This document shows, in pieces, positions 8,854 to 56,195 of a DNA stretch of 64,000 nucleotides (within the stretch, counting starts at the first letter, position 1; each line of letters starts with the position of its first letter). Origin of the DNA: Planctomycetota bacterium (GTDB lineage Bacteria > Planctomycetota > UBA8108); assembly GCA_965659285.1 (NCBI GenBank), contig CBFHWB010000001.1, forward strand, positions 1,797 through 65,796. Direction: 5' to 3'. Under the pieces are notes generated by a model. That model saw nothing but the letters and a program-made list of their open reading frames with translations. It had not been told where the DNA came from and made no database searches. Both the position numbers and the translations under genes were made by a program.

Positions 8854-10638
8854 TCACGCGGCCCCTTCTCCTGAAGGGGCATCCTCCTGGCCATCGTCGC
8901 CGCCCGCGCCTGCCGGCTCCAGCTCGCGGTCCTGCGGAAGATAGTCCTCCTCGACAAGCGCGGAGTTGTACTCGTAGGGTCCGCGATAGACTGTCGGAAG
9001 GTCGGGATGGAAGTTCCCGTGCGGCGGAGGCGAATCGAGCGTCCACTCGAGCGTGTTCGCCTTCCAGGGATTCTTTTCGGCCTTCTTGCCCCAGATCGCG
9101 CTGTAGATCAGCGCTATCAGGAAGAATACCTGGCCAAGCCCCAGCACGATGGCTGAGATGGTCATGAACTCCTGGTAGGGCTGCATATGCTCCCAGGTTT
9201 TGGAAGCCCCCTCGCCAGTATAAGCCGCGTAGCGCCTCGGCAGCCCCGCGGCTCCAACGATATGCATGGGGAAGAAGACGCAGTTGAATCCTATGAAGGT
9301 CAGGATGAAATGAATCTTGCCGAGAGTCTCGCTGAACATACGACCGAACATCTTCGGAAACCAGTAGGTGATCCCGGCGAAGACTCCGAAGAGGCTGCCG
9401 CCGAAGAGCACATAATGGATGTGGGCAACGATAAAGTAGGTGTCATGGATCATCAGATCCACCGTCGTCGCCGCCATGAAGATTCCACTGAGGCCTCCGA
9501 TGATGAACATCGAAATAAAGCCCAGGGCGTTCAGCATGGGCGTGGTGAAATGGATATTCCCGCGCCAGAGGGTACCCAGCCAATTGAAGCTCTTCACAGC
9601 CGAGGGAAGGGCGATCATCATCGTGGCAATCATGAAGTAGGTCCCGAGATAGGGATTCATGCCGCTCTGGAACATGTGATGCCCCCAGACGATGAAGCCG
9701 AGCCCGGCAATTCCGGCCATGGCGGCCGCCATGGCCTTGTAGCCGAAGATGGGCTTGCGAGCGAAAACCGAAACAATATCGGAGGCGATTCCCATGCCGG
9801 GAAGAATCATGATGTAGACAGCGGGATGGGAGTAGAACCAGAAGAGATGCTGATAGAGAAGAGGCTGGCCTTCATTGGTGAAGAAGGTGGTGCCAAAGTG
9901 CCTGTCGAGGATCAGCATGATCAGGGCGGAGGTCAGCACCGGCGTTCCGAAGAGAATCAGGATCGCCGTGATAAAGATCGACCAGACTGTAAGAGACATG
10001 CGCCCGAAGGTCATTCCAGGGGCGCGCATCTTGACGATGGTGGTCACGTAATTCACCGCGCCCATGATGCTCGACGTCCCCACGATGATCAGGCTGATGC
10101 ACCACAAGGTCTGACCGTAACCCGCTATGACGCTCAAAGATGGATACGAGGTCCAGCCGCCGGAGGCGAAGGCGCCGGACTTGAGACCGGCCTCGATGCC
10201 CTCCAGAAGGATTCCCCCGAACATGACGAATCCGGCCAACGGCATGATCCAATAGCTCAGGCCGTTGAGGAAGGGGAAGGCCATGTCGCGCGCGCCGATA
10301 TGAAGCGGAATGACAAAATTCCCGAAGGCTCCAACGAGAAATGGAATGATCACGAAAAAGATCATTACCGTGGCGTGCATGCTGAAGAGCACATTGTAGG
10401 TCTCGCCGCCAAATTGCTTCATGTCAACACCCATGAATTCGGCTTCGGGCCAGGCCAGGCGCATTCTCAAGGTGAGCGCGAGCCCTCCCCCGATAAACAG
10501 CATGAAGAGAGCCGTCATCATGAACTGCATGCCGATCGCCTTGTGGTCACGTGAGAAGACATACTTCCCCCAGAACCCCATCTCGTGGTGTTCGGCGTGA
10601 TCTTCGGTTGCGATGTTTTCTTTGGTTTCCGTAGTCAT
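8854..10638 (-). CDS. ctaD: Cytochrome c oxidase subunit I (heme-copper oxidase catalytic subunit)
   Basis: Canonical motifs WFYSHPAVYIMILPGMG and GFIVWGHHMF. 12-helix core. AAGGAG RBS 12 nt upstream of the ATG. Confidence 0.95.
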   Translation of the reverse strand: MTTETKENIATEDHAEHHEMGFWGKYVFSRDHKAIGMQFMMTALFMLFIGGGLALTLRMRLAWPEAEFMGVDMKQFGGETYNVLFSMHATVMIFFVIIPFLVGAFGNFVIPLHIGARDMAFPFLNGLSYWIMPLAGFVMFGGILLEGIEAGLKSGAFASGGWTSYPSLSVIAGYGQTLWCISLIIVGTSSIMGAVNYVTTIVKMRAPGMTFGRMSLTVWSIFITAILILFGTPVLTSALIMLILDRHFGTTFFTNEGQPLLYQHLFWFYSHPAVYIMILPGMGIASDIVSVFARKPIFGYKAMAAAMAGIAGLGFIVWGHHMFQSGMNPYLGTYFMIATMMIALPSAVKSFNWLGTLWRGNIHFTTPMLNALGFISMFIIGGLSGIFMAATTVDLMIHDTYFIVAHIHYVLFGGSLFGVFAGITYWFPKMFGRMFSETLGKIHFILTFIGFNCVFFPMHIVGAAGLPRRYAAYTGEGASKTWEHMQPYQEFMTISAIVLGLGQVFFLIALIYSAIWGKKAEKNPWKANTLEWTLDSPPPHGNFHPDLPTVYRGPYEYNSALVEEDYLPQDRELEPAGAGGDDGQEDAPSGEGAA

Positions 10639-10665
10639 GAGTCTCTCGAAGGCTCCTTGCTGAAC

Positions 10666-11676
10666 CTATTCGGCTTCCTTCTGTTCCTGGTAATAATGTA
10701 CGGGCTCGGGGAACTTCTCCGGAACCGCTGTCTTCCAGTCGTATCCGAGTTCCTTTGCCAGGTCCTCTTCACTGAGAACGAGGAAAGGCGCGTGCATGTT
10801 GGAGTGTCCCTCGCCGCAGAGCTCGGCGCAGACGATCTCGTACTTCTTACCTTCCTTGGCTGTCCCCTCCTTGATTTTGAACCAGATCTTACCGGGGTAG
10901 TAAGGAACCAGGTCCTGCTTCAACCGCAGGTGCGGCGAGAAAAAGCTGTGAAGCACCGGGTGGGTATAGATCTCGGTGTTGGCGTCGTATTTACCCAGGG
11001 AGTTCAACTCGATGAGTATGTTCACATTTTCCGGGACAACAAGCTTTGGCAGAACCTTGTCCTTGGCCAGATCGTCGAGGCCGACGGCATTGGTCGGAGA
11101 CTTGAAAGAATGCCGCTGATCCTCGAACTTCCCATCCTTGCCGGGATAGTTGAACCACCAGGCGAACTGTTCTCCGTAGACCCTGACAACAAAGGTTCCG
11201 GGCTGAACGACACCATCCTTCTCGGGATAGCCGGTCTTGATTGTCAGCCAGCTGCTGTCTCCCACCAGTTGTACAACACCGATGAAAACGAGGACTACGA
11301 CCGTGGCCAGCGTCCAGGTCACCTCGAGCTTGTTGTTGCCGTGGGTGTAGTGGGCCTTTTTGCGCCCTTCACGATTCCTGTAGCGAAAGAGGAACCAGAG
11401 CATCAGACCCTCGACGACGACAAAGGCGATCCCGGTGATCCAGAAGATCAGCACGAACAGGTCGTCCACCCCTTCGCCGTAGGTTGAAATGGCATCGGGC
11501 ATCCAGAACAGCCCGGGCTTCTCCGCCTCGTGGCCGGCAGCGGAAGCCGCCGCCGCGGCCGGCGCTTCGGCGCTCTTCTCCTGGGTCCAGGCTGGAGCGG
11601 CCAGCAACATTCCAACTACAGCCATAGCCAGCAAGGAGGTCGATCTTTTAAACCCCTGTAATCTTGTCAGAATCAT
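10666..11676 (-). CDS. ctaC: Cytochrome c oxidase subunit II (CuA subunit, aa3-type, no fused cytochrome c)
   Basis: CuA motif CAELCGEGHSNMH. Signal peptide plus two N-terminal helices. Ends with TAG. The track start at 11688 is a TTG; the probable start is ATG 11674-11676 (MILTRLQG) with an AGGAAG RBS. Confidence 0.9.
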   Translation of the reverse strand: MILTRLQGFKRSTSLLAMAVVGMLLAAPAWTQEKSAEAPAAAAASAAGHEAEKPGLFWMPDAISTYGEGVDDLFVLIFWITGIAFVVVEGLMLWFLFRYRNREGRKKAHYTHGNNKLEVTWTLATVVVLVFIGVVQLVGDSSWLTIKTGYPEKDGVVQPGTFVVRVYGEQFAWWFNYPGKDGKFEDQRHSFKSPTNAVGLDDLAKDKVLPKLVVPENVNILIELNSLGKYDANTEIYTHPVLHSFFSPHLRLKQDLVPYYPGKIWFKIKEGTAKEGKKYEIVCAELCGEGHSNMHAPFLVLSEEDLAKELGYDWKTAVPEKFPEPVHYYQEQKEAE

Positions 11677-11724
11677 TACTCGCTTCAACTTCCTGAAAAC
11701 TCTCTGGCTGTAATGAACCAGATA

Positions 11725-14237: not shown

Positions 14238-17200
14238 CTAATTGCCGCCTCCTGCCTCTTCCTGGGACTCCTCACGGGGAGCGGTCGCCATCTTCTCGTC
14301 GTTCATATGGCGCAGGTACTGCAGGAGAGCGTTTACATCCGCGAGATCTTTAGCGTCAATTTCCGAAGCCGGGTTCCCGGTATACTTCTTCCTCTCCTGG
14401 AAATAGTTCGGCATCTTGGTCCCAGGCATGAAGTCAGGCGGGAAATAGAGCCAGTCCCGTGTCCACTGCGCTCGCAGCCGGCCGGCGGCCGCGTTGAGAT
14501 CCGGACCCCAGGAGCTCTTATCCCAGGGCTTTCCGGCTGCCCAGGCAGATGCCTTGCCGCCAAGTTCGCCACCAGCGGTCTGGACGGCATCCAGGGTGGC
14601 GAACCCCCCCCGCAGGAGGATCTTGCCATCGGAATCCTTCCAGACCAGGAAGTGGCTGTCACCCGGAGCGCTCAGCGGAACCTCCGCGGGAGCAACCGTC
14701 CCGGCTCCCTGGGCGAGGATCGGCAAGGTCGGTAATTCTGCGCCGCGAGGATGGCACTGGCTGCATTGCTTGCCCTTGACCTCAGCCGTACCCTTCCCAC
14801 ACAGCAGTTGCCCCTTGAGAGCCTGTTCTTTTTCGAACCTGTCCTCAGCGAAGAGCTCCTCACCATACGGAACCTCACTGACAGCCTTGAACCACTGGAC
14901 AATCAGGCGGGCCTCAGCCTGCGTAAGATTGAAGGACGGCATTCGGACCTTCAGCCAGGGCCGAATAGGACGCACGTCCTGCAGGAAGTGGAAGAACCAG
15001 TCACTCTTGACGCGCTCTCCCTGGCGCAACAGCGGCGGCGGCGCCTTGAACCTGTCGGTCAACTCTGTTCCAAAGTAGAAACGCACTCCACCCTCGCCAT
15101 AGCCCTTCACCGCGAGTTTTCGCTCGCTTACAGGACTCTCGGAAAGAACCCCGCCAAGAGCCGAGTAGTATTGCGTCGCAAGCCCCTCGAGTTCATCCTT
15201 CCTCACCCCCAGCCCGTCCGGCAGGGAATCGAGGTCTATGTCATAAGGGGTCTCCAGCATAGCGACAAGGAATTGCCCGAGCGCGCTCGATTCATCCTCA
15301 TAGGACTTGCGCATCCGTGAGATCAACCCCGCAGGATCTGCCAGGCGCTTACGCACGAAATCATAGATTCCCCGGTTAGCGAGCGTATCGGCAGGCTCTT
15401 CCTCGTTGTACATCGAATCAATGACCCGGGCTACATCCTGAACAAAGCCCGGAAGAGGATAGAAATGCCTGCGTGCGACATCGACCACCGACATGGGATC
15501 CTCGTTCGGAGTAAAGACCTGCGGCAGAGTTGCATCGGTATTCGCATCACCGGAGCTGAACTGCCCGACCTGTTGACCGAGCGGGAAGCCGGCAGGAAGC
15601 TCGATCCCGAGATTCGACCCTTGCGGACCGGCCGGCCGCGCGGCTAACCGATAGCTCTTGGCGAGCCATGTCTCCGCCTGCATGACATTGCTCCGGCCGG
15701 ACTCATCTCCAAGCGCGTTGGGATTTGGAAGGTCATCAACCGACACATAGCTGGTGGTCGCTCCGAGGCGATGACAGCCTGAACAATTGAGCTTCTGAAC
15801 CAGGCGGCTGCCACCCTCGAGGATTTTCTCCCTCTCCGAAAGATGTTTCTTCCTGCCGGGATCGACCGGGTCAGCCACCAGGCTGATGACATAGGCGACA
15901 ACCGCCTCGACCTGCTCCGGCTTGTCGTGGAACGGAAACAGCGGCATCTTCAGAAGCTCGTCGGCTCCCTTGTGGGCTAATTGCTTCGTCACCTTGTAAT
16001 CGTAGACCGGCTCTCCTGAGCTGGTCCTTCCAACAGTCACCCTGCGAGGCAGAACATCAAATCTCCGGGTGTCGCTGAGCTTGGCCTTGGCCCACTCGTG
16101 ACGCTGATGGGGGATCGCCTCGGATCCATCCTCCTGGTGGCCCCACTGCCCGAAATCCAGGCGGTCAGAGCCCTTGTCCCCCCACTTGTTGAGCTCCGCT
16201 CCAATGGGCTGGGCGCCATCGAAATAGGCGACCCTGTCGGAAGACGGCACTCCTGGATCGGGGTCCTCGTCCCTGATTCCGTTGTGGCAGCCGAAGCAGC
16301 CATAGCGGCGAACCAGGCGATGCCCTACCAGGTTGAGCTTCTCCGAGGTCGACATCGGCTTGCTGGCGTCACCGCCCTTCAACAGGGTAGCCGCCCTGGA
16401 TGTGCCATGCACCGCGCCCAGATAATAGGTCGCTATATCATCAAGAATCTTCTTTTTCGCCGGGTCGCTTTCGATTTCGGCGGCATTGGTCGTGACCAGC
16501 CCGCTCTCCCACCCTTCGTCCCGATCCTTCTTCTGGCTCTCACCAAGCGTAGCAGGGGAAGCGGATGGATGGGCCGCGAGGTCGACATCGTTATAATCAA
16601 GCGTCAGGAGATAGCTGACCATGTCGGCGACCTTCTGTTCCCCGGCGGGATCCTGGCCGGGAGCAAGCCGGAAACGAGGCATGATCGTCTCCGGATCATG
16701 CGCCTGGGGATTGAGAATCCAGCTTGAAAGCCAGTTGACCGCCTTCTTGCGTCCGAGTTCAGTCGCCAGATCGAATTTGCGAGCCAGCGGACTCAGGTCC
16801 GGCCCAAAGGTATTGTGAATCCAGCGATTGTAGACCGCATCCGCCAGTTGGCCGACGCTCTCCAGCGCGCTCTCTTCGATCTCGAGGCTCTCTTCGAGCG
16901 CCATCGATTCCTCGATCGCTCTCTTGCTCTTGCTGTAGAGTTCCTCGAGTTCGGAGCCGACATCCAGTCCCTTGAGCCAACCATAAAGATCCGAAAGTTT
17001 TGTCCCGGATTCCCGATAGGCCGCGGCAAGCAGGGGCTGCCCTTCAGCCGACTGCGCAGCCTTCTGTTCCAATGCGGCGAGAACAGCCGCCAGAGCGGGG
17101 AGAGGCTCATCATATTCACCCTCGGATTCGACCTTGATGCTGTGACACCCCATACAGCCAAGCGTCTTGACGAGTTCCCGGCCGCGAACGGGGTCTCCAG

Positions 17201-19325
17201 CCGGCGCCGCTGCGGCGGCCGGGGAGCCAACGCTGGTATTGAAAAGGTAGGTCGCAAGCCCCAACACCTCGACGCTGTTCCGCAGGTTGAAATCCACCTC
17301 TTCACTACCGCCCGATTCGTCATCGGCTGAGCCGAGAGGGCGAAGCATCTTGCCATTGGAATTAGTCAGGTCAAAGAAACGCGGCATCTTTGACGATTCC
17401 CGGAAATGCACCGGATCACGAATCCAACGCGTCAGGAAGCCCATGGAAACCTTATCTCCCAGATGCTTGAGATTGGGACCCACCTTGTTGAGCTTCCAGA
17501 CCCGATCATCCGAAGCCCCGGCGGCAACCTCGAAACCTTCGATCGTATGGCAGCCGAAGCAGCCATAGGTCCGAACCAGCTTCTTGCCCAGGTTGAGCCG
17601 CTCGGCTCCCTCAATTTCCCATTGGTCATTGTGACACTTGGTGCAGCTCGAACTGGTAAAACCGGTCGGGAGCATCGGATGCTCCTCGTAATGCTTCAGA
17701 TGCCAGTGGTACTTATCCTCCCACTCTGCCCTCTGCTCTTCACCATCCGGAGTGTGCGCGACTATGGTGAACTCGATCGCATGGCCATCTCCGTAATGGC
17801 AGGTGGTGCAACCGGTGTCCTGGTAGGTGTGAGGGCTGGCCGCCGAAAGAAACAGGTCAAGACGGGGGTGGCTGGCATAAACCGAACCCCACTTTTCATC
17901 CTGGTACCCAACGAAGCGGGGATCCGGATCGTCGATGTTGATGTGGCAGGTCTTACATCGATGCACGCGGTCGACATCCATGAAGTTGAGCGGTTCCTTG
18001 AGCCCGGGAGTCACCACCTTATCGATCTTGTAGCTCGGAGCCATGAAATCAAGAAGCGGAGCGTTACGAACCGCGTTCCTCATGGACGAATCGATCAACT
18101 GGTATTGCTTGAGGGCGCTGTTGACCGCGAGCAGGCTATTCTTCAAGCCCGTCTTCAGAACGGAATAATCGGTGGTGCCGCCGGCCACCGACGTCTCCTC
18201 CTTCAACGCCGCGTCGTAAGCAGTCTCTGCTGCCTTCGCCTCGTTCCCGGTCTTCTCCATCTTGAAGAGCTTATCGTTGAGAACCTTGACGGAGGTTTTA
18301 TTGAACTCTACGGAAAGCTCCCTGACCTTCGCGGCCGCTGACTCTGTAGGGCCATCAGCCAGCACATGTTTCTTACTTTCCTCAAAGTTGAACTTGGCGG
18401 CCTGGAAATCACCGCGATAGGCGCGCAGGGCGCGGTCAGCCTCGCTGGCCGCGAAGGCCGCGTTGTTTTTCTCCCGAAGCTTTTCTCTCAATTCGGAATT
18501 CTCGGCAACCTCTGCCTCGATCAGAACCTCCAATTTCTGGACATGGTCGACCAGCCTCAGATAATTCACATCTACCCCGGCTGCCTTTTTCGGCAGCTCG
18601 CGCTTAACCTTCGTCCCCGTGAGCTTGTCCAGAACGAGAGAGAATCCCTGGGCCAGGCTTTCAAGCTTTTCAAGCTCTCCTTCCCTGGCATTTTTCAGCG
18701 CCTCCTCGGACTCCTCGGCCTGCACATCCCTCCAATGGGCCTGGATATGCTTCCACTGGCGATCGTAATCCTGCCAGAAAACCGCCAGGGTGATCACCAG
18801 CAGCGCGGCGCTCGAGATTGCGAAGGCGACATTCAGGGCTGACACGCGATAGAGGGTGGTCTCGCTATCGGGTTCGGTAAAGATACTCTGGGAGAGCTCC
18901 CGGAAGCCTTCTCCCTCGACCAGCGAATCGACGGTCGTTACGGACTCCTTGAGAGGATCTTCCTCTGGCAACTCAGGCAATTCGGGGCCGGTGGCCTCCT
19001 CAGCCGGAGCCTCTGCGGGAGCTTCCTTGCTGGCCGTAACGACCTCGGCCGGAGCCTCTGCCTCGGCCGGAGCCTCTGCGGGCGCCTCTGACGCCGCCAC
19101 CTCCGGCGCCGGCGCAGCGGCGGCGCCCGAGCCAAGGTAGCCGCGGGTTGGCGACCAGTACTGGTCGCCTCCGCCCCCGGCGGCAGGAGCGGGAGCCGCT
19201 GCAGCCGGAGTCTCCTGGGCGGGAGGATCCGCGGCTCCAGCATCAACCGGAGTAGAAGCCGGCTGGGCTCCACTGTCGTCCAGGTAACCTCTTGTAGGAC
19301 ACCAGGGTCCTCTGTCATTCGGCAT
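14238..19325 (-). CDS. Giant (1695 aa) membrane-anchored octaheme c-type cytochrome of the bc-complex/oxidase locus
   Basis: Eight CxxCH motifs (CKTCH, CTTCH, CTKCH, CFGCH, CMGCH, CFGCH, CSGCH, CSQCH). N-terminal Pro/Ala/Glu-rich low-complexity region with a duplicated W(C/S)PTRGYL motif. One hydrophobic helix (VSALNVAFAISSAALLVITLAVFW). About 350 aa of charged coiled-coil-like sequence. Ends with TAG. Confidence 0.85.
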   Translation of the reverse strand: MPNDRGPWCPTRGYLDDSGAQPASTPVDAGAADPPAQETPAAAAPAPAAGGGGDQYWSPTRGYLGSGAAAAPAPEVAASEAPAEAPAEAEAPAEVVTASKEAPAEAPAEEATGPELPELPEEDPLKESVTTVDSLVEGEGFRELSQSIFTEPDSETTLYRVSALNVAFAISSAALLVITLAVFWQDYDRQWKHIQAHWRDVQAEESEEALKNAREGELEKLESLAQGFSLVLDKLTGTKVKRELPKKAAGVDVNYLRLVDHVQKLEVLIEAEVAENSELREKLREKNNAAFAASEADRALRAYRGDFQAAKFNFEESKKHVLADGPTESAAAKVRELSVEFNKTSVKVLNDKLFKMEKTGNEAKAAETAYDAALKEETSVAGGTTDYSVLKTGLKNSLLAVNSALKQYQLIDSSMRNAVRNAPLLDFMAPSYKIDKVVTPGLKEPLNFMDVDRVHRCKTCHINIDDPDPRFVGYQDEKWGSVYASHPRLDLFLSAASPHTYQDTGCTTCHYGDGHAIEFTIVAHTPDGEEQRAEWEDKYHWHLKHYEEHPMLPTGFTSSSCTKCHNDQWEIEGAERLNLGKKLVRTYGCFGCHTIEGFEVAAGASDDRVWKLNKVGPNLKHLGDKVSMGFLTRWIRDPVHFRESSKMPRFFDLTNSNGKMLRPLGSADDESGGSEEVDFNLRNSVEVLGLATYLFNTSVGSPAAAAAPAGDPVRGRELVKTLGCMGCHSIKVESEGEYDEPLPALAAVLAALEQKAAQSAEGQPLLAAAYRESGTKLSDLYGWLKGLDVGSELEELYSKSKRAIEESMALEESLEIEESALESVGQLADAVYNRWIHNTFGPDLSPLARKFDLATELGRKKAVNWLSSWILNPQAHDPETIMPRFRLAPGQDPAGEQKVADMVSYLLTLDYNDVDLAAHPSASPATLGESQKKDRDEGWESGLVTTNAAEIESDPAKKKILDDIATYYLGAVHGTSRAATLLKGGDASKPMSTSEKLNLVGHRLVRRYGCFGCHNGIRDEDPDPGVPSSDRVAYFDGAQPIGAELNKWGDKGSDRLDFGQWGHQEDGSEAIPHQRHEWAKAKLSDTRRFDVLPRRVTVGRTSSGEPVYDYKVTKQLAHKGADELLKMPLFPFHDKPEQVEAVVAYVISLVADPVDPGRKKHLSEREKILEGGSRLVQKLNCSGCHRLGATTSYVSVDDLPNPNALGDESGRSNVMQAETWLAKSYRLAARPAGPQGSNLGIELPAGFPLGQQVGQFSSGDANTDATLPQVFTPNEDPMSVVDVARRHFYPLPGFVQDVARVIDSMYNEEEPADTLANRGIYDFVRKRLADPAGLISRMRKSYEDESSALGQFLVAMLETPYDIDLDSLPDGLGVRKDELEGLATQYYSALGGVLSESPVSERKLAVKGYGEGGVRFYFGTELTDRFKAPPPLLRQGERVKSDWFFHFLQDVRPIRPWLKVRMPSFNLTQAEARLIVQWFKAVSEVPYGEELFAEDRFEKEQALKGQLLCGKGTAEVKGKQCSQCHPRGAELPTLPILAQGAGTVAPAEVPLSAPGDSHFLVWKDSDGKILLRGGFATLDAVQTAGGELGGKASAWAAGKPWDKSSWGPDLNAAAGRLRAQWTRDWLYFPPDFMPGTKMPNYFQERKKYTGNPASEIDAKDLADVNALLQYLRHMNDEKMATAPREESQEEAGGGN
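18938..19140 (-). repeat. Coding low-complexity tandem repeat (Ala/Pro/Glu-rich, APAEAPAEAEAPAE) inside the octaheme cytochrome gene
   Basis: Reiterated DNA units such as CGGCCGGAGCCTCTGC. The repeat is protein-coding. Confidence 0.6.
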
Positions 19326-20481: not shown

Positions 20482-21255
20482 CTACATCGGGCCGGAAATG
20501 CCGCCATCCTTGCGGACCCGCCAGAAATGCACCGCTATCAACAGCCCGGCTCCAAGCGGAACCGCGATGCAATGAAGGACATAAAAACGCAGCAGGGTGG
20601 CAGCTCCGACCGTCTTGCTGCCAAGCAGGCCAAACCGAACATCACTTCCGGCGGTTACCAGTGAAACATCGCCAAGCTGGATAAAGGCTGCGCCGGGACC
20701 TTCGTGTCCCATGATCGGCGTCGCTCGCGCCATGTTGGTTCCAACCGTGATCGCCCAGATCGCCAGTTGATCCCACGGCAAGAGATAGCCTGTAAAGCTC
20801 AGCAGCAGGGTCAGCACCAGCAGGATCACTCCGACATTCCAGTTAAACTCACGCGGAGGCTTGTAGGAACCCGTAAGGAAGACCCGCAGCATATGCAGCC
20901 AGACGGTGATGACCATGAGGTGAGCGCCCCACCTGTGCAACTCACGCATGATACCGATGGGAACATGATCCCTTAGCGCCTTGATATCGTTGTAGGCGTA
21001 TTCCACCACGGGCCTGTAGTAGAACATCAGCAATACACCGGTGATCGTCTCGACCAGGAAAAGGAAGAAGGTCAACCCTCCCATGCACCAGGTAAAGCTC
21101 ATTCGAACCCCTGATTTACGCACCTTGATCGGGTGCAGGTGCAGGAAGACATTCGACAGCACCGCCAGGGCCTGGTCTCTCGGGTTGTCAGGATATTTAT
21201 GCCGGAAGATCGACTTCCAGATCTGGCTATCCGTGATGAATTTCATGAGGCTCAT
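20482..21255 (-). CDS. Cytochrome b6-like (cytochrome b N-terminal, four-His bis-heme) subunit
   Basis: Heme-ligand His pairs HRWGAHLMV...[11 protein letters not shown] and [11 protein letters not shown]...[10 protein letters not shown]. Probable start is the internal ATG ([13 protein letters not shown]); the track start is 21324. Confidence 0.85.
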
Positions 21256-21349
21256 AACGCGCCCCTCCAATCCACCCGGTCTGAGGAAAAGCGGGTGAAC
21301 CTGCAGAGGCTGTCGCCAACACAAGATCTGGTTGAACAGGTGTCCCTGG

Positions 21350-25489: not shown

Positions 25490-28363
25490 CTACTTCTCGT
25501 CGTCGGAATCGAGAGGATCGAGCAAGGCATCGCGCTCGTTCTGGAAATCCGAAACATCCCGGGTCTTAGAAGACTTTTTCTTGCCGGAACCCCTCGACGA
25601 CTTACGCCGGCTCCCGGCGCCGGCGGTCTTCCCCTTCTTCGCACGGGTTGATTTGCGCGGCTTGTCGGAAACGGCTCCCGCGGCCAACTCCTCACCGGGA
25701 ATCGTGAAGAGCTTGACAATGCAGAGCAGGCTGAAGATGGCTGCGACGACCCAGGCCCAGACAACGACAGATTTCTCCGCTGAAGCCCGGCCAGCCTGAC
25801 GCTGAGCCATCTCCTCTGACAGGGCGGCAAGGGAGGTTGAGATGCCGGCCTTCTGCTTCTGGATGAAGGCTGGATCGAGCCGGTGAACCGCTGGGCGGAG
25901 TTGCCGGGCCTTTAACGCGAGCTCCTCGAAGCGCTCTTTTTCGGCAACCTTCCCATCGACGGGATAGCCGGATTTTTCCAGGTCGAGCAGCTTCGACCGG
26001 GCCGAAGAGAGCTCCGCATCCAGGGCATCCAAGTCAGCCTTGATCTGCTGGAACGGCGCCGTCAACTCATCGTCTTCGTCTGTATATCCGTCATCCTCCC
26101 AGAGAAAATCGCCGGGCTTCAGCACTGCGTGATTCTCATGACAATCCCAGCAGACCTTCGTATGAACCGTGACGGACTCTTCGCCCTCCGAATCTTCCTT
26201 CTCACCCGAAGCGGGAGCCCTGGCCGCGAGATAATGCTCCAGGACCTCGTCGTGGCAGCTCCCGCATAATTTCCCCGCCAGCTCGGGGTCTTCATCATCA
26301 GGTCGATCCGGTCGTCCCCTGGAATCAACCAGCATCCCCTGGTGCGAATAGAGGAAGAGTCTCTTGTCCTCGGGCGTCTCAATGCTGCGATGCCACTTGA
26401 TCTCAAGCCTGGGCTTTGGAGGCTCCTTCTCTTCTTCCGGCTCCTCTTCTTTCTTCTCAGACTCATCTTCCGCAGGTTCTTCCCCCTCCGGTTTTCCAGC
26501 AGCCTCGGCGTCCGCAGGTTTTCCGGCAGCGGGCACCCCTTCTTCAGCCTCCTGGCCAGCAGGCTTTTCTTCCGCCGGTTTCTCTTCCGCCGGCTTGTCT
26601 TTCTCTGCCGGCTCTTCGGCATCTTTCTTTTCTTTCGGGGCTCCATCTTCAGCGCCTGATTTTCTTTCTTTCGCAGGTTCCTCTTCGGCCTTTTCTTTTT
26701 CGCTTTCCTCTTCAGCCGGATTGGCGTCTTTTCCGGAGTTCTCCGGCTTGGCCTCCTCTTCCACTTCCTCTTCCTCCGGCTCTTTCGAGGCTTCCTCGTC
26801 AGCTTCAAACAACAGCTCGAGAGCGAGGAGGAATTGCTCTGGAGGCGCGGTGTCAATTCCGCCATGGCAATCTACGCATTGCACTCCGGCGGCGTGATGG
26901 ACGCTTTCGGTCCATTTCTCCAGCGGCTTCTCATGTTTATGGCAGCTTCCGCAGGTCCCCCCGTCCGGCAGACCGTCCTGGCGCAACCCAGGCGTAACGA
27001 TAGCTTCATCCTCAGGCGTCTCCTCCTGCGATTCTTCCTCTTCAGCCGGACCGCCGCCGCCTCCTTCTTCCGAACCATCCTTAGCAGGATCATCGCCGGC
27101 CGAACCCGCTTCCTCTCCAGCCTGACCTTCTCCAGCGGCCTCCTTGCCGGACTCCTCGACACGCTCCGGGTAACCCTTGCTGCTGAAGTGATAACCCCAG
27201 CGCGTGGTCTCGGAGATATAGCCAAGAAAGCCCATCCCGAAGACGCCGAGAAGGAGCAGGAAGGCCAGGACCGCAAAAACCGGCCGCCGGGTGATCTTGC
27301 GCTCCTTGCCGCGGTCTATGACCGGCAACAGGAAGAGAACCAGCGCGACACCGTTAATCGTCAACACTCCGAGAAAGGCGGGATCGACACCCCAGGATCT
27401 GAGAAAAGGCAGTGCCGAGTAGAGATTGTCATCGAAGTACTTGAGGAACTGGTACATCGGCAGGAAGTACCACTCCGGCTTGATGCCCTCTGGTGTTCCA
27501 AACCTGTCGGCCGGTTCCCCGAGATGCCAGGGCCACCAGGTGGCAAAAGTCACCAGGAGAGCGAAACCGAGGTTGCAGGCGATCAAATCCCGATAGACCT
27601 GCCGTGGGAAGAAAGGCTCGCTGCCGCCCTTGGCCAGCGCCGCCTTATTGCCCAGTTCGATCTCATCGGTAACTGTGGTCTTGGGCGAGATCCCCTTCCA
27701 GGTTATCAGGGCGAGGTGATAGCCGACGAGGGCCAGCAGCAGCAGAGGCAGGATGACCACGTGGAGGGCGAAGAAGCGGCCGAGGGTGGCTCCGGAAACA
27801 TCCTCTCCCCCGCAGATGAGTTCCTTGAGCGTTGACCCGATCACCGGAAAAGAGTCGATCGCTCCAAGCCCTACCCGGGTAGCCCAGAAGGCAAGCTGGT
27901 TCCAGGGCAGCAGGTAGCCTGAGAAACAGAAGAGCATCGAGACCCCCAGCAGGAGCATTCCCACGAACCAGGTAAACTCTCGAGGACGCTTGTAGGATCC
28001 GTACCAGACGACCTTGAGCATGTGAAGCACGAGCACCACGATAATGAAACTCGCGCCCCAGGAATGCATCTGCCGGATGAGCCAACCCAGCCGGGCGTGA
28101 TACTCAATCGTCTGCACCGACTTGAAGGCCAGCGTCTCCTCGGGAACGTAGAGCGTCAGCAGGAGACAGCCGGTAAAAAACTGGAGAGCGAAGAAGAACA
28201 GGGCCAGCGCCCCCGTGGTATAGAGCCAGGACAGGCGCGTCGGAACAGGCTTGCCGGCCTGCTCTCCCGCGAGGGCGAGCATCCTCTCGCCTCCGCTTCG
28301 ATCGAGCAGCCATGCTTTCAGCCTTGCGATAGATTTCCCTGTCTTGTCCGGCAATTCTCTCAC
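25490..28363 (-). CDS. Full-length cytochrome b (b6 plus subunit-IV domains in one chain) fused to a C-terminal tetraheme c-type cytochrome domain, with a C-terminal membrane helix and polybasic tail
   Basis: His ligands (IRQMHSWGASF...HMLKVVWYGSYK and RFFALHVV...GYHLALIT). PEWYFLP motif. Acidic Glu/Lys/Pro/Ala-rich low-complexity linker. Four CxxCH motifs (CGSCH, CVDCH, CGSCH, CWDCH). Terminal helix VVVWAWVVAAIFSLLCIV followed by a K/R/S-rich tail. Confidence 0.85.
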   Translation of the reverse strand: MRELPDKTGKSIARLKAWLLDRSGGERMLALAGEQAGKPVPTRLSWLYTTGALALFFFALQFFTGCLLLTLYVPEETLAFKSVQTIEYHARLGWLIRQMHSWGASFIIVVLVLHMLKVVWYGSYKRPREFTWFVGMLLLGVSMLFCFSGYLLPWNQLAFWATRVGLGAIDSFPVIGSTLKELICGGEDVSGATLGRFFALHVVILPLLLLALVGYHLALITWKGISPKTTVTDEIELGNKAALAKGGSEPFFPRQVYRDLIACNLGFALLVTFATWWPWHLGEPADRFGTPEGIKPEWYFLPMYQFLKYFDDNLYSALPFLRSWGVDPAFLGVLTINGVALVLFLLPVIDRGKERKITRRPVFAVLAFLLLLGVFGMGFLGYISETTRWGYHFSSKGYPERVEESGKEAAGEGQAGEEAGSAGDDPAKDGSEEGGGGGPAEEEESQEETPEDEAIVTPGLRQDGLPDGGTCGSCHKHEKPLEKWTESVHHAAGVQCVDCHGGIDTAPPEQFLLALELLFEADEEASKEPEEEEVEEEAKPENSGKDANPAEEESEKEKAEEEPAKERKSGAEDGAPKEKKDAEEPAEKDKPAEEKPAEEKPAGQEAEEGVPAAGKPADAEAAGKPEGEEPAEDESEKKEEEPEEEKEPPKPRLEIKWHRSIETPEDKRLFLYSHQGMLVDSRGRPDRPDDEDPELAGKLCGSCHDEVLEHYLAARAPASGEKEDSEGEESVTVHTKVCWDCHENHAVLKPGDFLWEDDGYTDEDDELTAPFQQIKADLDALDAELSSARSKLLDLEKSGYPVDGKVAEKERFEELALKARQLRPAVHRLDPAFIQKQKAGISTSLAALSEEMAQRQAGRASAEKSVVVWAWVVAAIFSLLCIVKLFTIPGEELAAGAVSDKPRKSTRAKKGKTAGAGSRRKSSRGSGKKKSSKTRDVSDFQNERDALLDPLDSDDEK
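26380..26830 (-). repeat. Coding low-complexity acidic repeat (PAEEKPAEEK/EEEPEEEKE-like) in the cytochrome b-c fusion gene
   Basis: Reiterated GAAGA/CTTCT-rich DNA encoding an E/K/P/A-rich linker. The repeat is protein-coding. Confidence 0.55.
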
Positions 28364-50438: not shown

Positions 50439-50534
50439 GGCTGGTTTCCTTCGGGCGATAATGGTCGTTAGGGCAAATAGAAGTATAGGAGTCCCCATCG
50501 CCGCAAGTCAAGCAGGGCGGCAGGCCGGAAAACC

Positions 50535-53500
50535 TCAGACCGCGAGATCACAGGATTCCCGGGATTTTCCGGTAAAGGCCTCCAGGCAGGAAGCCGTTGG
50601 AGACTCCGGCGCTCCCGCCAACAGGCCCGCCGCCGGCCCCTGGTAGAGCAGCTCTCCCCCGGCGTCTCCTCCTCCCGGGCCAAGGTCGATCAGCCAGTCA
50701 GCTCCGGCTATGACCTCGAGGTTGTGCTCGATCACCACCACCGCGTGTCCGGCGGCCGCGAGCTCCGTAAGAACCTCCACCAGCCGGGCAACATCTCTCA
50801 TATGGAGCCCCGTCGTCGGCTCATCGAAGAGGTAGAGCCCCGCCCCCCGGGTGGTCTTCGAAAGCTCGACGGCCAGCTTGACACGCTGGGCCTCTCCGCC
50901 TGAGAGGGTGGTGCTGGGCTGCCCCAGGGTCAGGTAGCCGAGCCCGAGAGAATCAAGAGCTCTCAGCGGGCGGGTCAGATCGCGAAAAGAGTCAAAAAAC
51001 CGGACACCCTCCTCCACCGTCAGCTCCAGCACGTCGGCGATACTCTTGCCGTTGTAGATGATCTCAAGCGTCTCGGGGTTGAAGCGCCTGCCCAGGCAGA
51101 CCTCGCAATCCACCGTCATGTCCGGAAGAAAGTTCATCTCCATTCGTTTCCGGCCCTGCCCGGAACAGGCATCGCAGCGTCCATCGGCGACATTGAAGGA
51201 GAAGCGCCGCGCCTCCCACCCTCGAGCGCGGGCCGCGGGGGTCGAGGCGAAGATCTGGCGAATCCGGTTCCAGAAGCCGACATAGGTGGCCGGGGTCGAG
51301 CGCGGGGTCCGGCCAATGGGCCTCTGGTCCACCTCGCGCAGCGATTCGACCAGCTCGACACCGACCACCTCACGAACGCCGGCTACAGGATCCCGAAGAC
51401 CCCGGAACTGCCTGCGAATCGACTCCTCCAGAAGATCCCTCACCAGCGTAGACTTTCCGGCCCCCGAAACGCCGGTCACCACCGTCACAGCCCCCATAGG
51501 AATCTTCACATCGATATCCTTGAGATTGTGCAGGGTGGCGCCGCGAATCTCGAGGCAGGGAGAATCATCGAGCGGCTCCGCCGCCAGCTCGAAGCTCCTG
51601 TTGTCCCGGTCCCGGAAATAGCGCGCCGTCTCGGATGTCTTGTCGGAGATGATCTCATCGAGAGCCCCCTGGACGACAACCTCGCCGCCGTGACGACCCG
51701 GGCCCGGCCCCATATCGATCACATGATCGGCCGCCTCGATGGTCGCATCATCGTGCTCGATCACATAGACGCTATTGCCCTTGTCGCGCAGATCCCTGAG
51801 AGTCTCCAGCAGGCGCTCATTGTCTCTCGGGTGCAGTCCGATCGTGGGCTCATCGAGAATATAGCAGGCTCCCCGTAGATTCGAGCCCAGGGCCGAAGCC
51901 AGCCGGATGCGCTGAGCCTCTCCTCCCGAGAGCGTATTGGCGGACCGGTTCAGGGCGAGATAATCGAGCCCGACCTCGCGCAGAAAATCAAGGCGCGAGG
52001 CGATTTCTACCAGGATAGGATCGACGACAGGCCGGTCCCGCTCCTTGACCTCCAGCGCCCCGAGAGCCAGGCTCAGCTCTTCAACAGAGAGCCGGGTCAT
52101 CTCGCCTATGCTCTTTCCTCCCACCCGTACGGCTCCCCAGCGGCGGGCGATTCTGCTTCCATCGCAGGCTGGACAGACCATCTCCGATCCCTTCCGGGCG
52201 AGATACCTGTCCCTGTCATCGGGTTCGAGGTCTCCCAGGAGCTCATCGACCATGGGCACCAGGCCAGGGAATCCGGATCGTCCCTTTCCCTCCAGCAGGA
52301 TTCCAAGAGCCCGCTTCCCCCATCGCGAGAGATCCCTGCCATCTGTGGGAAGCCCGCTGATCCCGGCAAGCTCAGCAAGGAAGGCTCTGCGAAAACCGCG
52401 CCCGAAAGGCGGCTCATCCAGGAAGGTCAGAGGACCGTTCCTCTTCGCCTCCAGGGGAGCGTCCCAGTTCTCGATCAGCTTCAGCGGATCAAGCCTGTAG
52501 AACGCGCCATAACCCGAACACTCGCCGCAGGCTCCATGACGGGAATGGAAGCTGAAATTTCTCGGGTCGGGCTCGTCAAAATCACGGCCGCAGGAGGGAC
52601 AGGATCTGTTCCTGCTGAGGAGAGTCTCCTCTCCCTGGTCATCGACAAAACGAACCACCCCCCTGCCAAGCTCAAGGGCTCGCAGGAGAGTCCTCGACAG
52701 GTCGACTCCCGCGTTCTTCCCGGCGGAAGAAAATCTCCCGAGGACCAGGTCGATGTCATGAAGCTTGTGCCGGTCGAGGCGCAGCTCCTCTTCGGGAATC
52801 TCGATCCAACCGTCATCAATACGCGCCTCGATAATCCCCTCAGCCCGCGCCTTTGAGAGAACCGTGTGGTGAAAGCCCTTCTTGCCGCGAATCACCGGCG
52901 CCAGCAGCGCGCCCCCACCGGAGGCCAGTTCCCGGACCCGCTCGAGAATCTCATCGAAGCTCCGGGGAACAGCCTCTACATCGCAGCCGGGACAGACCTG
53001 CGCGCCGGCCCGGGTAAAAAGCAGACGAAGAAAATGGTAGACCTCGGTGACGGTCCCCACGGTGGACTTCCTGCCTCCGACAGTGGTGCGTTGCTCAATC
53101 GCTACAGCAGGCGGAATGCCCTCGAGATGGTCGATGTCGGGGCGGTGCAGATCCTCGACAAACTGGCGGGCATAGGGAGACAGGCAGTCGAGGTAGCGCC
53201 GCTGTCCTTCGGAGAAAACAATGTCGTAGAGCAGCGATGATTTCCCGGAACCGCTGAGGCCGGTGACGACGACAAAGGCGTTGCGTGGAATCTCGACGTT
53301 GATGTTCTTGAGATTGTTTTCCCTCGCGCCGACCACCCGGATCACGTTCTTTCGCCGGGAGGACCGCCTGGAGGCCTTTCGTCCGGCCGTGCTCTTCCCG
53401 GCCGCCCTGAGCGCCTCGCCAACCCAGCGTCCGGTGATCGAGTCCTTCACCGCGGCGACCTCCTCGGGCGAGCCGCTGGCGACAAGACGCCCGCCGCCGT

Positions 53501-56195
53501 CGCCGCCCTCCGGCCCCAGGTCGATGAGGTGATCGGCCTGGGCCAGCACATCCACCTGGTGCTCGATCATGACAACCCCGTGTCCCCGGTCTACCAGCCC
53601 GTGAAGAACATCGAGCAGTCGGCGAATATCGTCGAGGTGGAGCCCCGTGGTCGGCTCATCCAGGAGAAAGAGCAGCCTTCCTTCCCCGCGGGTCATCAGC
53701 ACCCTGGATGCCAGCTTCAGGCGCTGGGCCTCGCCGCCGGAGAGAGTGTTGAGCGGCTGTCCAAGCTGCAGGTAGCCGAGCCCCAGGGAACCGAGGAAAC
53801 GGAGCCTCTCCGCGAGCCTCTCCTCATGGCTGAAAAAGACAGCCGCATCGTCGATGGTCAGTTGGAGAACCTCGTGAACATTGAGCTCCCCGTACCTGAT
53901 CCCCAGCACCTCCTGCCGGAACCTGCGTCCGTCACAGGCCTCACAGGTCAGCGTGACATCGGACAGGAACTGCATCTCGATCTGGACAACCCCCGCCCCC
54001 TTGCATTCCTCGCAGCGACCGCCCTTCACATTGAAGCTGAAGGCGCCGGCGTCAAAGCCGGCCTCGCGAGCCTCATCCGTGGCGGCGAAGAGCTTGCGGA
54101 TTCGGTCAAAAACCTTCGTATAGGTCGCCGGATTACCCCTGGGGGTCTTTCCGATGGGCGACTGGTCGACCAGCACGACCTCATCGACCAGCTCCAGGCC
54201 GCGAATGGAATCCACGAGCACCTCTCCCTCAACCGCCAGGCCCTGTTCCCGCTGCCAGTGACGCCAGAGAACCTGGTGGACCAGGGAGCTTTTGCCGGAG
54301 CCGGAGACCCCGCTGACGGCGGTGAAGACGTCGACCGGGATATCGACATCAAGATCCCGAAGGTTGTTCTCACGCGCCCCGGCAATCGCCAGGCAACGGG
54401 AAGCCTTCACCTTGCGGCGCTTGCGTGAGGCGGCAGCCACCCGGGACTCTCCCCTGAGGTAGGCACCGGTGAGCGAATCCCCGCTCGAGATGATCTTTCC
54501 GACAGACCCCTCAGCCACCACCTCGCCTCCAGCGCTTCCGGACCCGGGCCCCATGTCGATCACATGATCGGCGGCGGCGACAATCTCCGGATCATGCTCC
54601 ACCACCACCACCGTATTGCCGCGGTCACGCACCTGGCGCAGAATCTCGAGCAGGCGCGCGTTATCCCTCGCATGCAGCCCAATGGAGGGCTCGTCGAGAA
54701 CGAAGAGCGTGTCCACCAGCGAGGCTCCGAGAGCCGCGGTCAGGTTCACCCGCTCCACCTCCCCTCCGGAGAGCGTACGGGACTGGCGGTCGAGCGACAG
54801 GTAGCCGAGGCCGACGGAGTCCAGGTAACCGAGCCGGGAGGAGATCTCCTCCACCACGAGGCGCTCAGGCCTCTGCAGCTTCCCGGCTGCAAGCTCGGCC
54901 AGGATCCTGACGCCGGCGAGCACCGGCAGCTTCCAGAACTCCGGCAGCGTCATTCCGCCTACGCGAAAGCAGAAGGCCTCAGGCCTCAGGCGACCGCCGC
55001 GGCAGGATGGACACTCGTTGAAGCCGCGGTAGCGCGACAGGAACACTCGCACGTGCATCCTGTACTTCTTCTTTTCGAGGCTGCGAAAAAAACCTTTCAC
55101 CCCGGCCCAACCGCTCCCGCCGCCGTCGATGACGAAGGCTCTGTCCTCCCTGGAGAGCTCCTCCCAGGGAACATCCATGTCGAGTCCCCGCGCCTCGCAG
55201 GCTTTCCTGCATTTCGTACGCCAGCGGCCTGAACGCCGGCCCTTGCTCTTCCACGGCTTGATGGCACCTGAATTGAGTGACAGGCGGCGGTCGGGAACGA
55301 CCAGCCCCCAGTCGATCTCGATGATCCTGCCAAACCCGCGGCACTCCTTGCAGGCTCCATAGGGCGTATTGAAGGAGAAAAGACCGGGAGTAGGATTCGG
55401 CAAGGCCACATCGCAGGCGGAGCAGCGCAGTCCGCGCGTAAAGTCCCTCGATCCCCTCGAGGTAAGAAGTCTCATCCTTCCATGGGCTACCTTGAAGGCC
55501 TGCTCGATGGAATCTACGCGCCGCTGTCGCGAGGCGGATTTTTTCGAGAGACGGTCGACGACAATGTCCACCCGTCCGTCCTCGAGATCACCAGCCTCGA
55601 GATCAGTGATACGAACAACCTCCCCGCCGCGAAGAAAGCGCAGAAACCCCTGTCCCTGGAAGGCCGCCGAGATGACCTCTAACGACTCGAAGCCTCCGAG
55701 GGGAACGGGAGCTACGATGAGAACGGGCCAGTCCGAATCTTTGAGGGCCGCGAGGCTCTCGAGCACTGCGGTGGTATTCTCAGGCTCGACCTCCTCTGCG
55801 CACTGCGGACAATAGCCTCGTGAGCAGCGTGAATACAGCAGCTTGAGGTAGTCGTTGATTCCGGTCATGGTGCCCACCGTCGAACGTGAAGTCTTCACCG
55901 CGCCGGACTGGTCGATGGCGACCGCCGGGGGGATTCCATCGATCGAGTCCGCGTCCGGCCGGGTAAAGCGGTCAAGGAACTGCCTGGTATAGGCGGAAAA
56001 CGTCTCGACGTAGCGGCGCTGCCCCTCGGCATAGAGCGTATCGAAGGCCAGGCTGGATTTCCCCGAACCGCTCACACCCGTAATCACGGTGAGCTTGCCC
56101 AGGGGGATATCGATATCGATATCCCTCAAGTTGTTCTGACGAAGTCCGCGCAGCCGAATGGCGGCGTCGCCGTTACAGGAGTTCCTTGCGCACAT
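50535..56195 (-). CDS. uvrA: Tandem-duplicated UvrA-like ABC ATPase (1886 aa; two complete UvrA-type modules, four ABC ATPase domains)
   Basis: Walker A GVSGSGKSSL occurs four times (ITGVSGSGKSSLAFD, VSGVSGSGKSSLVHQ, VTGLSGSGKSSLLYD, VTGVSGAGKSTLVRD). Four LSGGE signatures. Cys-x2-Cys zinc modules. The second module restarts with VIRVVGARENNLKNINVEIP. Confidence 0.85.
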   Translation of the reverse strand: MCARNSCNGDAAIRLRGLRQNNLRDIDIDIPLGKLTVITGVSGSGKSSLAFDTLYAEGQRRYVETFSAYTRQFLDRFTRPDADSIDGIPPAVAIDQSGAVKTSRSTVGTMTGINDYLKLLYSRCSRGYCPQCAEEVEPENTTAVLESLAALKDSDWPVLIVAPVPLGGFESLEVISAAFQGQGFLRFLRGGEVVRITDLEAGDLEDGRVDIVVDRLSKKSASRQRRVDSIEQAFKVAHGRMRLLTSRGSRDFTRGLRCSACDVALPNPTPGLFSFNTPYGACKECRGFGRIIEIDWGLVVPDRRLSLNSGAIKPWKSKGRRSGRWRTKCRKACEARGLDMDVPWEELSREDRAFVIDGGGSGWAGVKGFFRSLEKKKYRMHVRVFLSRYRGFNECPSCRGGRLRPEAFCFRVGGMTLPEFWKLPVLAGVRILAELAAGKLQRPERLVVEEISSRLGYLDSVGLGYLSLDRQSRTLSGGEVERVNLTAALGASLVDTLFVLDEPSIGLHARDNARLLEILRQVRDRGNTVVVVEHDPEIVAAADHVIDMGPGSGSAGGEVVAEGSVGKIISSGDSLTGAYLRGESRVAAASRKRRKVKASRCLAIAGARENNLRDLDVDIPVDVFTAVSGVSGSGKSSLVHQVLWRHWQREQGLAVEGEVLVDSIRGLELVDEVVLVDQSPIGKTPRGNPATYTKVFDRIRKLFAATDEAREAGFDAGAFSFNVKGGRCEECKGAGVVQIEMQFLSDVTLTCEACDGRRFRQEVLGIRYGELNVHEVLQLTIDDAAVFFSHEERLAERLRFLGSLGLGYLQLGQPLNTLSGGEAQRLKLASRVLMTRGEGRLLFLLDEPTTGLHLDDIRRLLDVLHGLVDRGHGVVMIEHQVDVLAQADHLIDLGPEGGDGGGRLVASGSPEEVAAVKDSITGRWVGEALRAAGKSTAGRKASRRSSRRKNVIRVVGARENNLKNINVEIPRNAFVVVTGLSGSGKSSLLYDIVFSEGQRRYLDCLSPYARQFVEDLHRPDIDHLEGIPPAVAIEQRTTVGGRKSTVGTVTEVYHFLRLLFTRAGAQVCPGCDVEAVPRSFDEILERVRELASGGGALLAPVIRGKKGFHHTVLSKARAEGIIEARIDDGWIEIPEEELRLDRHKLHDIDLVLGRFSSAGKNAGVDLSRTLLRALELGRGVVRFVDDQGEETLLSRNRSCPSCGRDFDEPDPRNFSFHSRHGACGECSGYGAFYRLDPLKLIENWDAPLEAKRNGPLTFLDEPPFGRGFRRAFLAELAGISGLPTDGRDLSRWGKRALGILLEGKGRSGFPGLVPMVDELLGDLEPDDRDRYLARKGSEMVCPACDGSRIARRWGAVRVGGKSIGEMTRLSVEELSLALGALEVKERDRPVVDPILVEIASRLDFLREVGLDYLALNRSANTLSGGEAQRIRLASALGSNLRGACYILDEPTIGLHPRDNERLLETLRDLRDKGNSVYVIEHDDATIEAADHVIDMGPGPGRHGGEVVVQGALDEIISDKTSETARYFRDRDNRSFELAAEPLDDSPCLEIRGATLHNLKDIDVKIPMGAVTVVTGVSGAGKSTLVRDLLEESIRRQFRGLRDPVAGVREVVGVELVESLREVDQRPIGRTPRSTPATYVGFWNRIRQIFASTPAARARGWEARRFSFNVADGRCDACSGQGRKRMEMNFLPDMTVDCEVCLGRRFNPETLEIIYNGKSIADVLELTVEEGVRFFDSFRDLTRPLRALDSLGLGYLTLGQPSTTLSGGEAQRVKLAVELSKTTRGAGLYLFDEPTTGLHMRDVARLVEVLTELAAAGHAVVVIEHNLEVIAGADWLIDLGPGGGDAGGELLYQGPAAGLLAGAPESPTASCLEAFTGKSRESCDLAV

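Follow-up and report, generated by a model that had tools for sequence, protein, structure and literature searches.

In bacterial nucleotide excision repair, damage to DNA is sensed by UvrA, which is driven by ATP and loads UvrB. The protein is normally a symmetric homodimer, yet the repair that it starts is asymmetric: a single strand is damaged, and a single UvrB stays behind on the DNA. The way in which the symmetry is broken, and the number of UvrB molecules loaded (one or two), are matters of debate (PMC11985968). Canonical class I UvrA (E. coli b4058; G. stearothermophilus 2R6F/3UWX; M. tuberculosis 3ZQJ) is ∼940 amino acids (aa) in length. Class II UvrA (D. radiodurans UvrA2, 2VF7; DrrC; Ecm16, 7SH1) belongs to the same superfamily, with the ATP-binding cassette (ABC) core and the insertion domain in common, and is defined by having neither the UvrB-binding domain nor zinc module 1 (PMC9328131, PMC10192343). 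Double-length UvrAs are already abundant in databases, where UvrA is their routine name, and a model curated by NCBI exists for the roughly double-length chlamydial long UvrA (NF001885/PRK00635, 1809 positions). A 2008 review by Goosen and Moolenaar reportedly lists duplications among the UvrA classes; no experimental or comparative study of a double-length UvrA was found in full-text literature searches. Here we describe a tandem uvrA gene from a marine Planctomycetota bacterium (lineage UBA8108), which, like the chlamydiae, belongs to the Planctomycetes-Verrucomicrobia-Chlamydiae (PVC) superphylum. The gene lies within a stretch of 64,000 nucleotides (GenBank assembly GCA_965659285.1, contig CBFHWB010000001.1, positions 1,797 to 65,796), referred to below as the window. 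Its product is 1886 aa long and is made of two units with 41% mutual identity along their whole length, so that the symmetry of the canonical homodimer is impossible.

The tandem gene (50535-56195, minus strand) is a single uninterrupted open reading frame (ORF) with an ATG start and zero internal stops, based on the ORF list and its translation. A motif scan located Walker A boxes at aa 40, 629, 979 and 1575, LSGGE signatures at aa 475, 818, 1422 and 1764, and Walker B motifs (hhhDEP) at aa 497, 842, 1445 and 1787, and four H-loops are present, the fourth of which (VYVIEHD) can be seen in the alignment to E. coli UvrA. Together these make up four full ABC motif sets (Walker A, Walker B, signature, H-loop), two per half, which are kept across 119 relatives; in the alignment of the tandem family, each of the four sites has an invariant Walker A lysine and an invariant Walker B glutamate. 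Twelve CxxC motifs, pairing at 129/258, 282/395, 728/751, 1068/1199, 1223/1341 and 1674/1697, form six zinc modules (modules 1-3 per half) where UvrA has them. The UvrA N-terminal sequence begins anew at aa 951-952 (VIRVVGARENNLKNINVEIP...GQRRYLDCLSPYARQF). An original prediction, made by a model from the letters and their translated ORFs, had reported four Walker A boxes, four ABC signatures, repeated Cys-x2-Cys zinc modules and a second half that restarts with a UvrA N-terminal-like sequence, all of which were located in the motif scan and translation. The features of the gene are listed below by window coordinates and strand, with the evidence for each in parentheses.

50535..56195 (-): tandem uvrA ORF, 1886 aa plus stop (ORF list, translation; two matches each to NF001503 and TIGR00630)
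53409..56195 (-): N module, aa 1-929, complete class I UvrA unit (E. coli alignment, TIGR00630, AlphaFold2/Foldseek, N-half clade)
53343..53408 (-): inter-module linker, aa 930-951, RAAGKSTAGRKASRRSSRRKNV, basic and of low complexity (unaligned to E. coli UvrA)
50538..53342 (-): C module, aa 952-1886, second complete class I UvrA unit (E. coli alignment, TIGR00630, AlphaFold2/Foldseek, C-half clade)
55413..55811 (-): N-module UvrB-binding domain and zinc module 1, aa 129-261 (PF17760, 40.8 bits at aa 156-243; CPQC/CSAC ligands)
55002..55352 (-): N-module insertion domain and zinc module 2, aa 282-398 (PF17755, 49.6 bits)
52590..52994 (-): C-module UvrB-binding domain and zinc module 1, aa 1068-1202 (PF17760, 53.6 bits, profile 2-105/109)
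52164..52529 (-): C-module diverged insertion domain and zinc module 2, aa 1223-1344 (hhalign, AlphaFold2; no Pfam match)
53934..54014 (-): N-module C-terminal zinc finger (zinc module 3), aa 728-754 (CEEC...CEAC; with a conserved hairpin Phe and EM.FL motif)
51096..51176 (-): C-module C-terminal zinc finger (zinc module 3), aa 1674-1700 (CDAC...CEVC; hairpin Phe conserved)
56055..56078 (-): Walker A 1, GVSGSGKS, N-module proximal site (motif scan)
54288..54311 (-): Walker A 2, GVSGSGKS, N-module distal site (motif scan)
53238..53261 (-): Walker A 3, GLSGSGKS, C-module proximal site (motif scan)
51450..51473 (-): Walker A 4, GVSGAGKS, C-module distal site (motif scan)

Both halves are complete class I UvrA units. 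The NCBIfam UvrA equivalog NF001503 matches the tandem protein twice, with 2032.7 bits (E = 0; cutoff 1147), as does TIGR00630 with 1992.2 bits (cutoff 729.8). For half-by-half scoring with hidden Markov models (HMMs) the protein was cut at aa 942/943, and each half alone passed TIGR00630 (N half 1004 bits, C half 994 bits). The N module is 41.7% identical to E. coli UvrA (b4058) over E. coli residues 4-940, and the C module 43.3% identical over residues 4-934; the claim that two complete UvrA modules reside in one polypeptide is thus borne out. Compared with canonical class I UvrA, each half likewise has ATP-binding domains I and II, signatures I and II, a UvrB-binding domain, an insertion domain and three zinc modules. 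Models were made with AlphaFold2 (AF2) for each half separately, and had a predicted local distance difference test score (pLDDT) of 87.9 and a predicted template modelling score (pTM) of 0.81 for the N module, and of 88.2 and 0.86, respectively, for the C module. Using Foldseek, the half models aligned over ∼950 columns to full-length class I UvrA structures (3uwx/2r6f/3zqj): the N module matched 3uwx_A with a template modelling (TM) score of 0.88 and the C module on 3zqj_A with 0.84, while 2r6f gave 0.85.

One domain departs from the canonical pattern. Pfam detects the UvrB-binding domain (PF17760) in both halves and the insertion domain (PF17755) in the first half only, the second insertion domain being beyond Pfam detection, unlike that of canonical class I UvrA. 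Within the corresponding segment of the C module (aa 1223-1344) the zinc module 2 ligands are retained, hhalign matches the segment to the N-module insertion-domain profile (99.3%, E 4e-20), and AF2 gives a pLDDT of ∼90 with the same strand-plus-helices pattern as in the N module. For these reasons the segment is a diverged insertion domain, not a lost one.

Catalytic, dimer-interface and DNA-wedge residues of canonical UvrA are also retained. Arg(-5) before signature I and Gln(-5) before signature II tell distal from proximal ATPase sites (PMC6486640), and in alignment each half retains both markers. In C. thermocellum UvrA the homodimer interface involves R54, Y55, S58, F66, G80, L81, P83, A84, I85, L507, M508 and V510, and its DNA wedge Y62, Q65 and F66 (PMC12796330). 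Mapped onto the alignment, these residues are conserved in both halves of the planctomycete protein and of 33 tandem relatives, including interface residues R54, Y55, F66, G80, P83 and L507 and wedge residues Y62 and Q65. In E. coli numbering, the interface shows fixed differences between N and C halves at positions 56, 82, 506 and 508.

Protein searches returned more than 100 full-length relatives of ∼1750-1960 aa with 43-97% identity, which come from independent assemblies, including isolates and complete genomes. Hosts of tandem UvrAs include Planctomycetota, Verrucomicrobiota, Thermodesulfobacteriota and, on their chromids, Burkholderiaceae. The 90% cluster of the closest match has 75 members, among them several 1886-aa proteins of independent origin that carry the name "excinuclease ABC subunit UvrA [Planctomycetota bacterium]". 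Full-length copies were found at 99% identity in a Tara Oceans metagenome-assembled genome (MAG; L013) and at 96% in Planctomycetes bacterium UBA1146 (L014), and the tandem genes of relatives L013-L016 contain zero stop codons. The genome collection also yielded tandem uvrA in MAGs of Opitutia, Verrucomicrobiia and Thermodesulfobacteriota, and the plasmid collection contained annotated uvrA genes of 1945-1975 aa on chromids of Ralstonia, Burkholderia and Mycetohabitans, such as those of Burkholderia multivorans (WP_045592911.1, 1974 aa; L002:3007-8931) and Ralstonia solanacearum (QKL94620.1, 1945 aa; L003:2986-8823). Further members occur in Mycetohabitans (L006) and Haloferula helveola (P0043). 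Among the best 150 matches to the N half in a library of 50%-identity representatives, nearly all were double-length and none was a stand-alone N-type protein (∼950 aa).

Neighbor-joining trees with bootstraps were built from 27 and then 33 tandems divided into halves (in the larger set, with the third Walker A as guide), along with normal-length UvrAs, 4 at first and 11 later (Pirellulaceae and Lentisphaerales among them), and two class II proteins; the trees are distance-based and their class II root is uncertain. All N halves formed one clade and all C halves another, each with 100% bootstrap support, and N and C halves together never formed a clade. The C halves grouped with canonical UvrAs in 56-78% of bootstrap replicates. 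Because the N-half and C-half clades are separate at 100% and their internal branching mirrors each other, the trees indicate one ancient fusion, after which both modules diverged together. The same fusion event is shared by the double-length UvrAs of Verrucomicrobiota, Thermodesulfobacteriota and Burkholderiaceae chromids, whose halves fall in the same two clades and which are annotated routinely as "excinuclease ABC subunit UvrA". In each of the two clades the Burkholderiaceae halves adjoin a protein from a Verrucomicrobiia MAG (92% and 74%), which suggests that the Burkholderiaceae acquired their tandem uvrA later by horizontal transfer.

The model of the chlamydial long UvrA, by comparison, is not matched in full by this family. 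The tandem protein scored 1150 bits against NF001885, which has a cutoff of 3054, and both of its halves matched only the N-terminal half of the model (positions ∼6-970), as was likewise found for four other family members. Since both halves behave in this way, the chlamydial protein, compared here by HMM only, would be a different or far more diverged double-length form.

Other unusual UvrA-like proteins were encountered during these searches. Proteins of ∼1570-1690 aa (P0249, P0261, P0297 and ∼25 other representatives) have four Walker A boxes with a short spacing (∼330 aa) from Walker A to signature in both halves, and by this crude measure look like tandems of units each without one ∼100-130-aa domain. 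P0115 (2403 aa) has five Walker A boxes and five signatures, approximately two and a half UvrA units, and P0029 (2167 aa) carries an N-terminal extension of ∼280 aa, possibly from a start-codon miscall. MAGs of Candidatus Poseidoniales (marine group II archaea; L031-L033, L040) have a normal-length bacterial-type uvrA that is 39-44% identical to the tandem. On a Microbacterium plasmid (NZ_CP072877.1, 196359-199213; L007) a uvrA adjoining uvrC is broken into two frames, and the PLSDB gene table, which is incomplete, lists no coding sequence there; a pseudogene or a sequencing error is the probable cause.

Purifying selection acts on all domains of the tandem protein, and the 22-aa linker alone is exempt. 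The window gene was compared codon by codon with those of relatives L013-L016, and the ratio of nonsynonymous to synonymous substitution rates (dN/dS) was 0.02-0.19 for every domain of both halves, with values of 0.04-0.09 for the N-module UvrB-binding domain and 0.08-0.19 for the C-module insertion domain. For the linker, which offers few sites, dN/dS was 0.8-1.3 versus the closest relatives. The linker (aa 930-951) aligns to nothing in E. coli UvrA, and the AF2 termini flanking it have a pLDDT below 50. Across the family it spans 25-53 aa when counted from an S.TG motif (aa 923-951 here), is rich in A, R, S, P and G, and is 11% conserved.

Conservation of the individual domains, scored over 119 tandem relatives, differed between the two modules. 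The N-half insertion domain was present in all 119, with a mean identity of 48% versus 35% among canonical UvrAs. The C-half insertion domain is the least conserved part of the family (17%) and was cut to less than half its length in 50 of the 119, down to a spacer of 14-30 residues between intact zinc module 2 ligands. Deletions of this kind can be seen in P0031, P0033, P0036, P0088, L034 and L036. For the UvrB-binding domain the higher values belonged to the C half, both in conservation (37% versus 30.5% in the N half) and in nearness to canonical UvrA (26% versus 20%), and the zinc module 1 cysteines were kept in the C half of all 119 relatives versus the N half of 83. In many relatives the C-half insertion domain, the N-half zinc module 1 cysteines or both are gone, whereas the planctomycete protein keeps every domain.

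The analysis establishes the architecture, both modules as complete, purifying selection in every domain, and a fusion of single origin and wide distribution. In our view the tandem protein is probably a single-chain pseudo-heterodimeric class I UvrA that takes part in nucleotide excision repair. One ∼1886-aa chain would unite both subunits of the usual UvrA homodimer, and in this chain the N module (aa 1-929) would pair with the C module (aa 952-1886) via the canonical ATP-binding-domain-I interface, the two being tethered by the flexible, basic linker of ∼22 aa. Such a pseudo-dimer would have one DNA groove and four competent ATPase sites (two proximal, two distal), and would also carry two UvrB-binding domains and two C-terminal zinc fingers. 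It would be permanently asymmetric, because its modules are only 41% identical and descend from one ancient fusion. Across the family, the N module would hold the conserved insertion domain, used for damage-specific DNA binding, and the C module the better-conserved UvrB-binding domain, with its own insertion domain free to diverge or vanish. The original prediction had proposed either a single-chain dimer or a paralogue involved in drug resistance. The first of these is the better supported, given that both halves are complete class I units, the dimer-interface residues are kept and the linker is flexible and unconserved; the second was not upheld, as both halves have the UvrB-binding domain and zinc module 1, and the gene has housekeeping neighbors and no biosynthetic cluster. 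A partial analogy is offered by the SSB protein of Deinococcus-Thermus, in which the subunit of a homo-oligomer was duplicated and fused, giving half the number of chains and non-identical domains (PMC5128194), although SSB differs from tandem UvrA in fold and function and is unrelated to it.

The tandem uvrA sits between a TIGR00725-family gene and trpE-trpG-trpD-trpC-trpF, within a region that holds genes for cytochrome oxidase, haem A synthesis, sigma-54, MurJ, Lnt and multihaem cytochromes; no biosynthetic or efflux genes are adjacent to it. The order uvrA-trpE-trpG-trpD is retained in relatives down to 57-60% identity. A sigma-70-like promoter match (50482-50511, minus strand; TTGACT-18-TATACT, 10/12) lies between the uvrA stop and trpE, and the trp genes may therefore be transcribed apart from uvrA. 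Elsewhere in the window, a cytochrome c oxidase cluster (5497-11688, minus strand) comprises COX2, COX1 and the CtaA, CtaB/UbiA-type prenyltransferase and SCO1/SenC assembly genes. An ORF of 1695 aa (14238-19325, minus strand) encodes a giant multihaem cytochrome: it contains eight haem-binding CxxCH motifs and gives weak matches to SoxX/CcoO-like cytochrome c. A 957-aa ORF (25490-28363, minus strand) was considered as a normal-length uvrA and rejected, as it encodes a cytochrome b fusion, with a cytochrome b/b6 and subunit IV-like membrane part joined to a C-terminal region that has four CxxCH motifs; another cytochrome b gene is found at 20482-21324 (minus strand).

Several observations weigh against the single-chain reading or restrict it. 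Each half alone falls just under the stricter NF001503 cutoff (1024 and 1015 versus 1147 bits). Neither uvrB nor uvrC was found within the 64-kb window, and because of this the role in excision repair with UvrB is one that we infer from homology. Pairing of the N and C modules within one chain, as opposed to between chains, is likewise proposed from homology and the conserved interface residues, and the 22-aa linker is presumed long enough to connect one protomer's C terminus with the other's N terminus. The division of labor between modules is a family-wide trend that can be extended to the planctomycete protein by inference only, since this protein keeps both insertion domains and both UvrB-binding domains, all of them under selection. 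Furthermore, canonical UvrAs of Sinorhizobium and Bacteroidia are also without the zinc module 1 cysteines; loss of these cysteines was for this reason not taken as loss of function, and the idea of a dead N-half UvrB-binding domain, which had been argued from it, was rejected.

The remaining objections concern where else UvrAs are found, and they favor a different reading, in which the tandem is a specialized second UvrA beside a normal-length uvrA elsewhere in the genome. Normal-length UvrAs occur in other members of the Planctomycetota and PVC group (Pirellulaceae, L030; Lentisphaerales, L026), and the tandem family is found on chromids or megaplasmids of Burkholderia, Ralstonia and Mycetohabitans. 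These three genera have a canonical chromosomal uvrA, and the tandem is likely a paralogue beside it in the Burkholderiaceae. Based on the normal-length UvrAs of related lineages and the chromid location, a canonical uvrA might coexist with the tandem here as well, leaving to the latter a side role in a particular lesion class, in stress-induced repair or in mutagenesis; the N halves are, moreover, a distinct and divergent lineage in the tree. Nevertheless, the tandem gene occupies a core chromosomal setting whose synteny is kept over deep divergence, all of its domains are under strong purifying selection and both UvrB-binding domains are retained. In addition, its C halves associate with canonical UvrAs in the bootstrap proportions given above, and there is no second uvrA within the 64-kb window, where tblastn of half 1 finds the two halves only. 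A side role of this kind is the leading alternative and is considered unlikely.

The conserved interface residues could also be read in favor of pairing between modules (N or C) of different chains, which would give dimers or open-ended oligomers of tandem chains. Both halves conserve the homotypic Tyr-Tyr and Phe-Phe contacts made across the two-fold axis, so that N:N, C:C and N:C pairs are all chemically plausible. However, no lineage examined has given up the fusion or its flexible linker since the single ancient event, the best 150 cluster representatives included no stand-alone N-type protein, and the fixed, complementary N/C differences at positions 56, 82, 506 and 508 fit a heterotypic N:C interface, which makes pairing between chains rather improbable.

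It is very hard to sustain that the tandem is a class II protein (UvrA2/DrrC/Ecm16-like) which removes DNA-binding drugs independently of UvrB. The protein is of the UvrA family, has an unusual length and has a diverged insertion domain in its second half, the domain that sets drug specificity in Ecm16 (PMC10192343). The reading fails because both halves carry the UvrB-binding domain and zinc module 1 that class II proteins are without; the half models also resemble class I structures (TM 0.84-0.88) more closely than class II UvrA2 (2vf7, TM 0.68), and no biosynthetic or efflux genes adjoin the gene. An ABC-F protein was rejected on similar grounds (NF000355, 146 bits versus a cutoff of 380; TM of 0.17-0.18 to EttA), and the possibility raised beforehand that the halves might be degenerate ABC-F type proteins does not hold up against their HMM scores and fold. 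Least credible of all, and in fact refuted, is an artefact in which two adjacent uvrA genes were merged by a lost stop codon or by misassembly, a concern that was likewise raised in advance and that has the unusual length in its favor and nothing more, given the 99% and 96% identical full-length copies in independent MAGs, the 75-member 90% cluster, the isolates and complete genomes that supply more than 100 relatives of 1750-1960 aa, and the uninterrupted frames of L013-L016.

With respect to annotation, UvrAs of ∼1900 aa are genuine genes and should not be flagged as frameshift or merge errors. The asymmetry between modules across the family may be unreported so far. As a tentative proposal, which we consider possible rather than probable, double-length UvrAs could be obligate asymmetric single-chain "heterodimers" with divided work, in which the N module gives the sole indispensable insertion domain, used to discriminate damage, and the C module the principal UvrB-loading domain. 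Repeated loss of the second insertion domain within the family suggests that one copy suffices. If the proposal is true, one functional insertion domain, and possibly one loaded UvrB, would be enough for excision repair across much of the bacterial tree. The fused, non-identical modules would be a tool in which each ATPase site, UvrB-binding domain and insertion domain can be altered separately, including a scaffold for mutating each of the four ATPase sites individually, and the family would provide a natural experiment on the questions of UvrA2B1 versus UvrA2B2 and of strand choice (PMC11985968).

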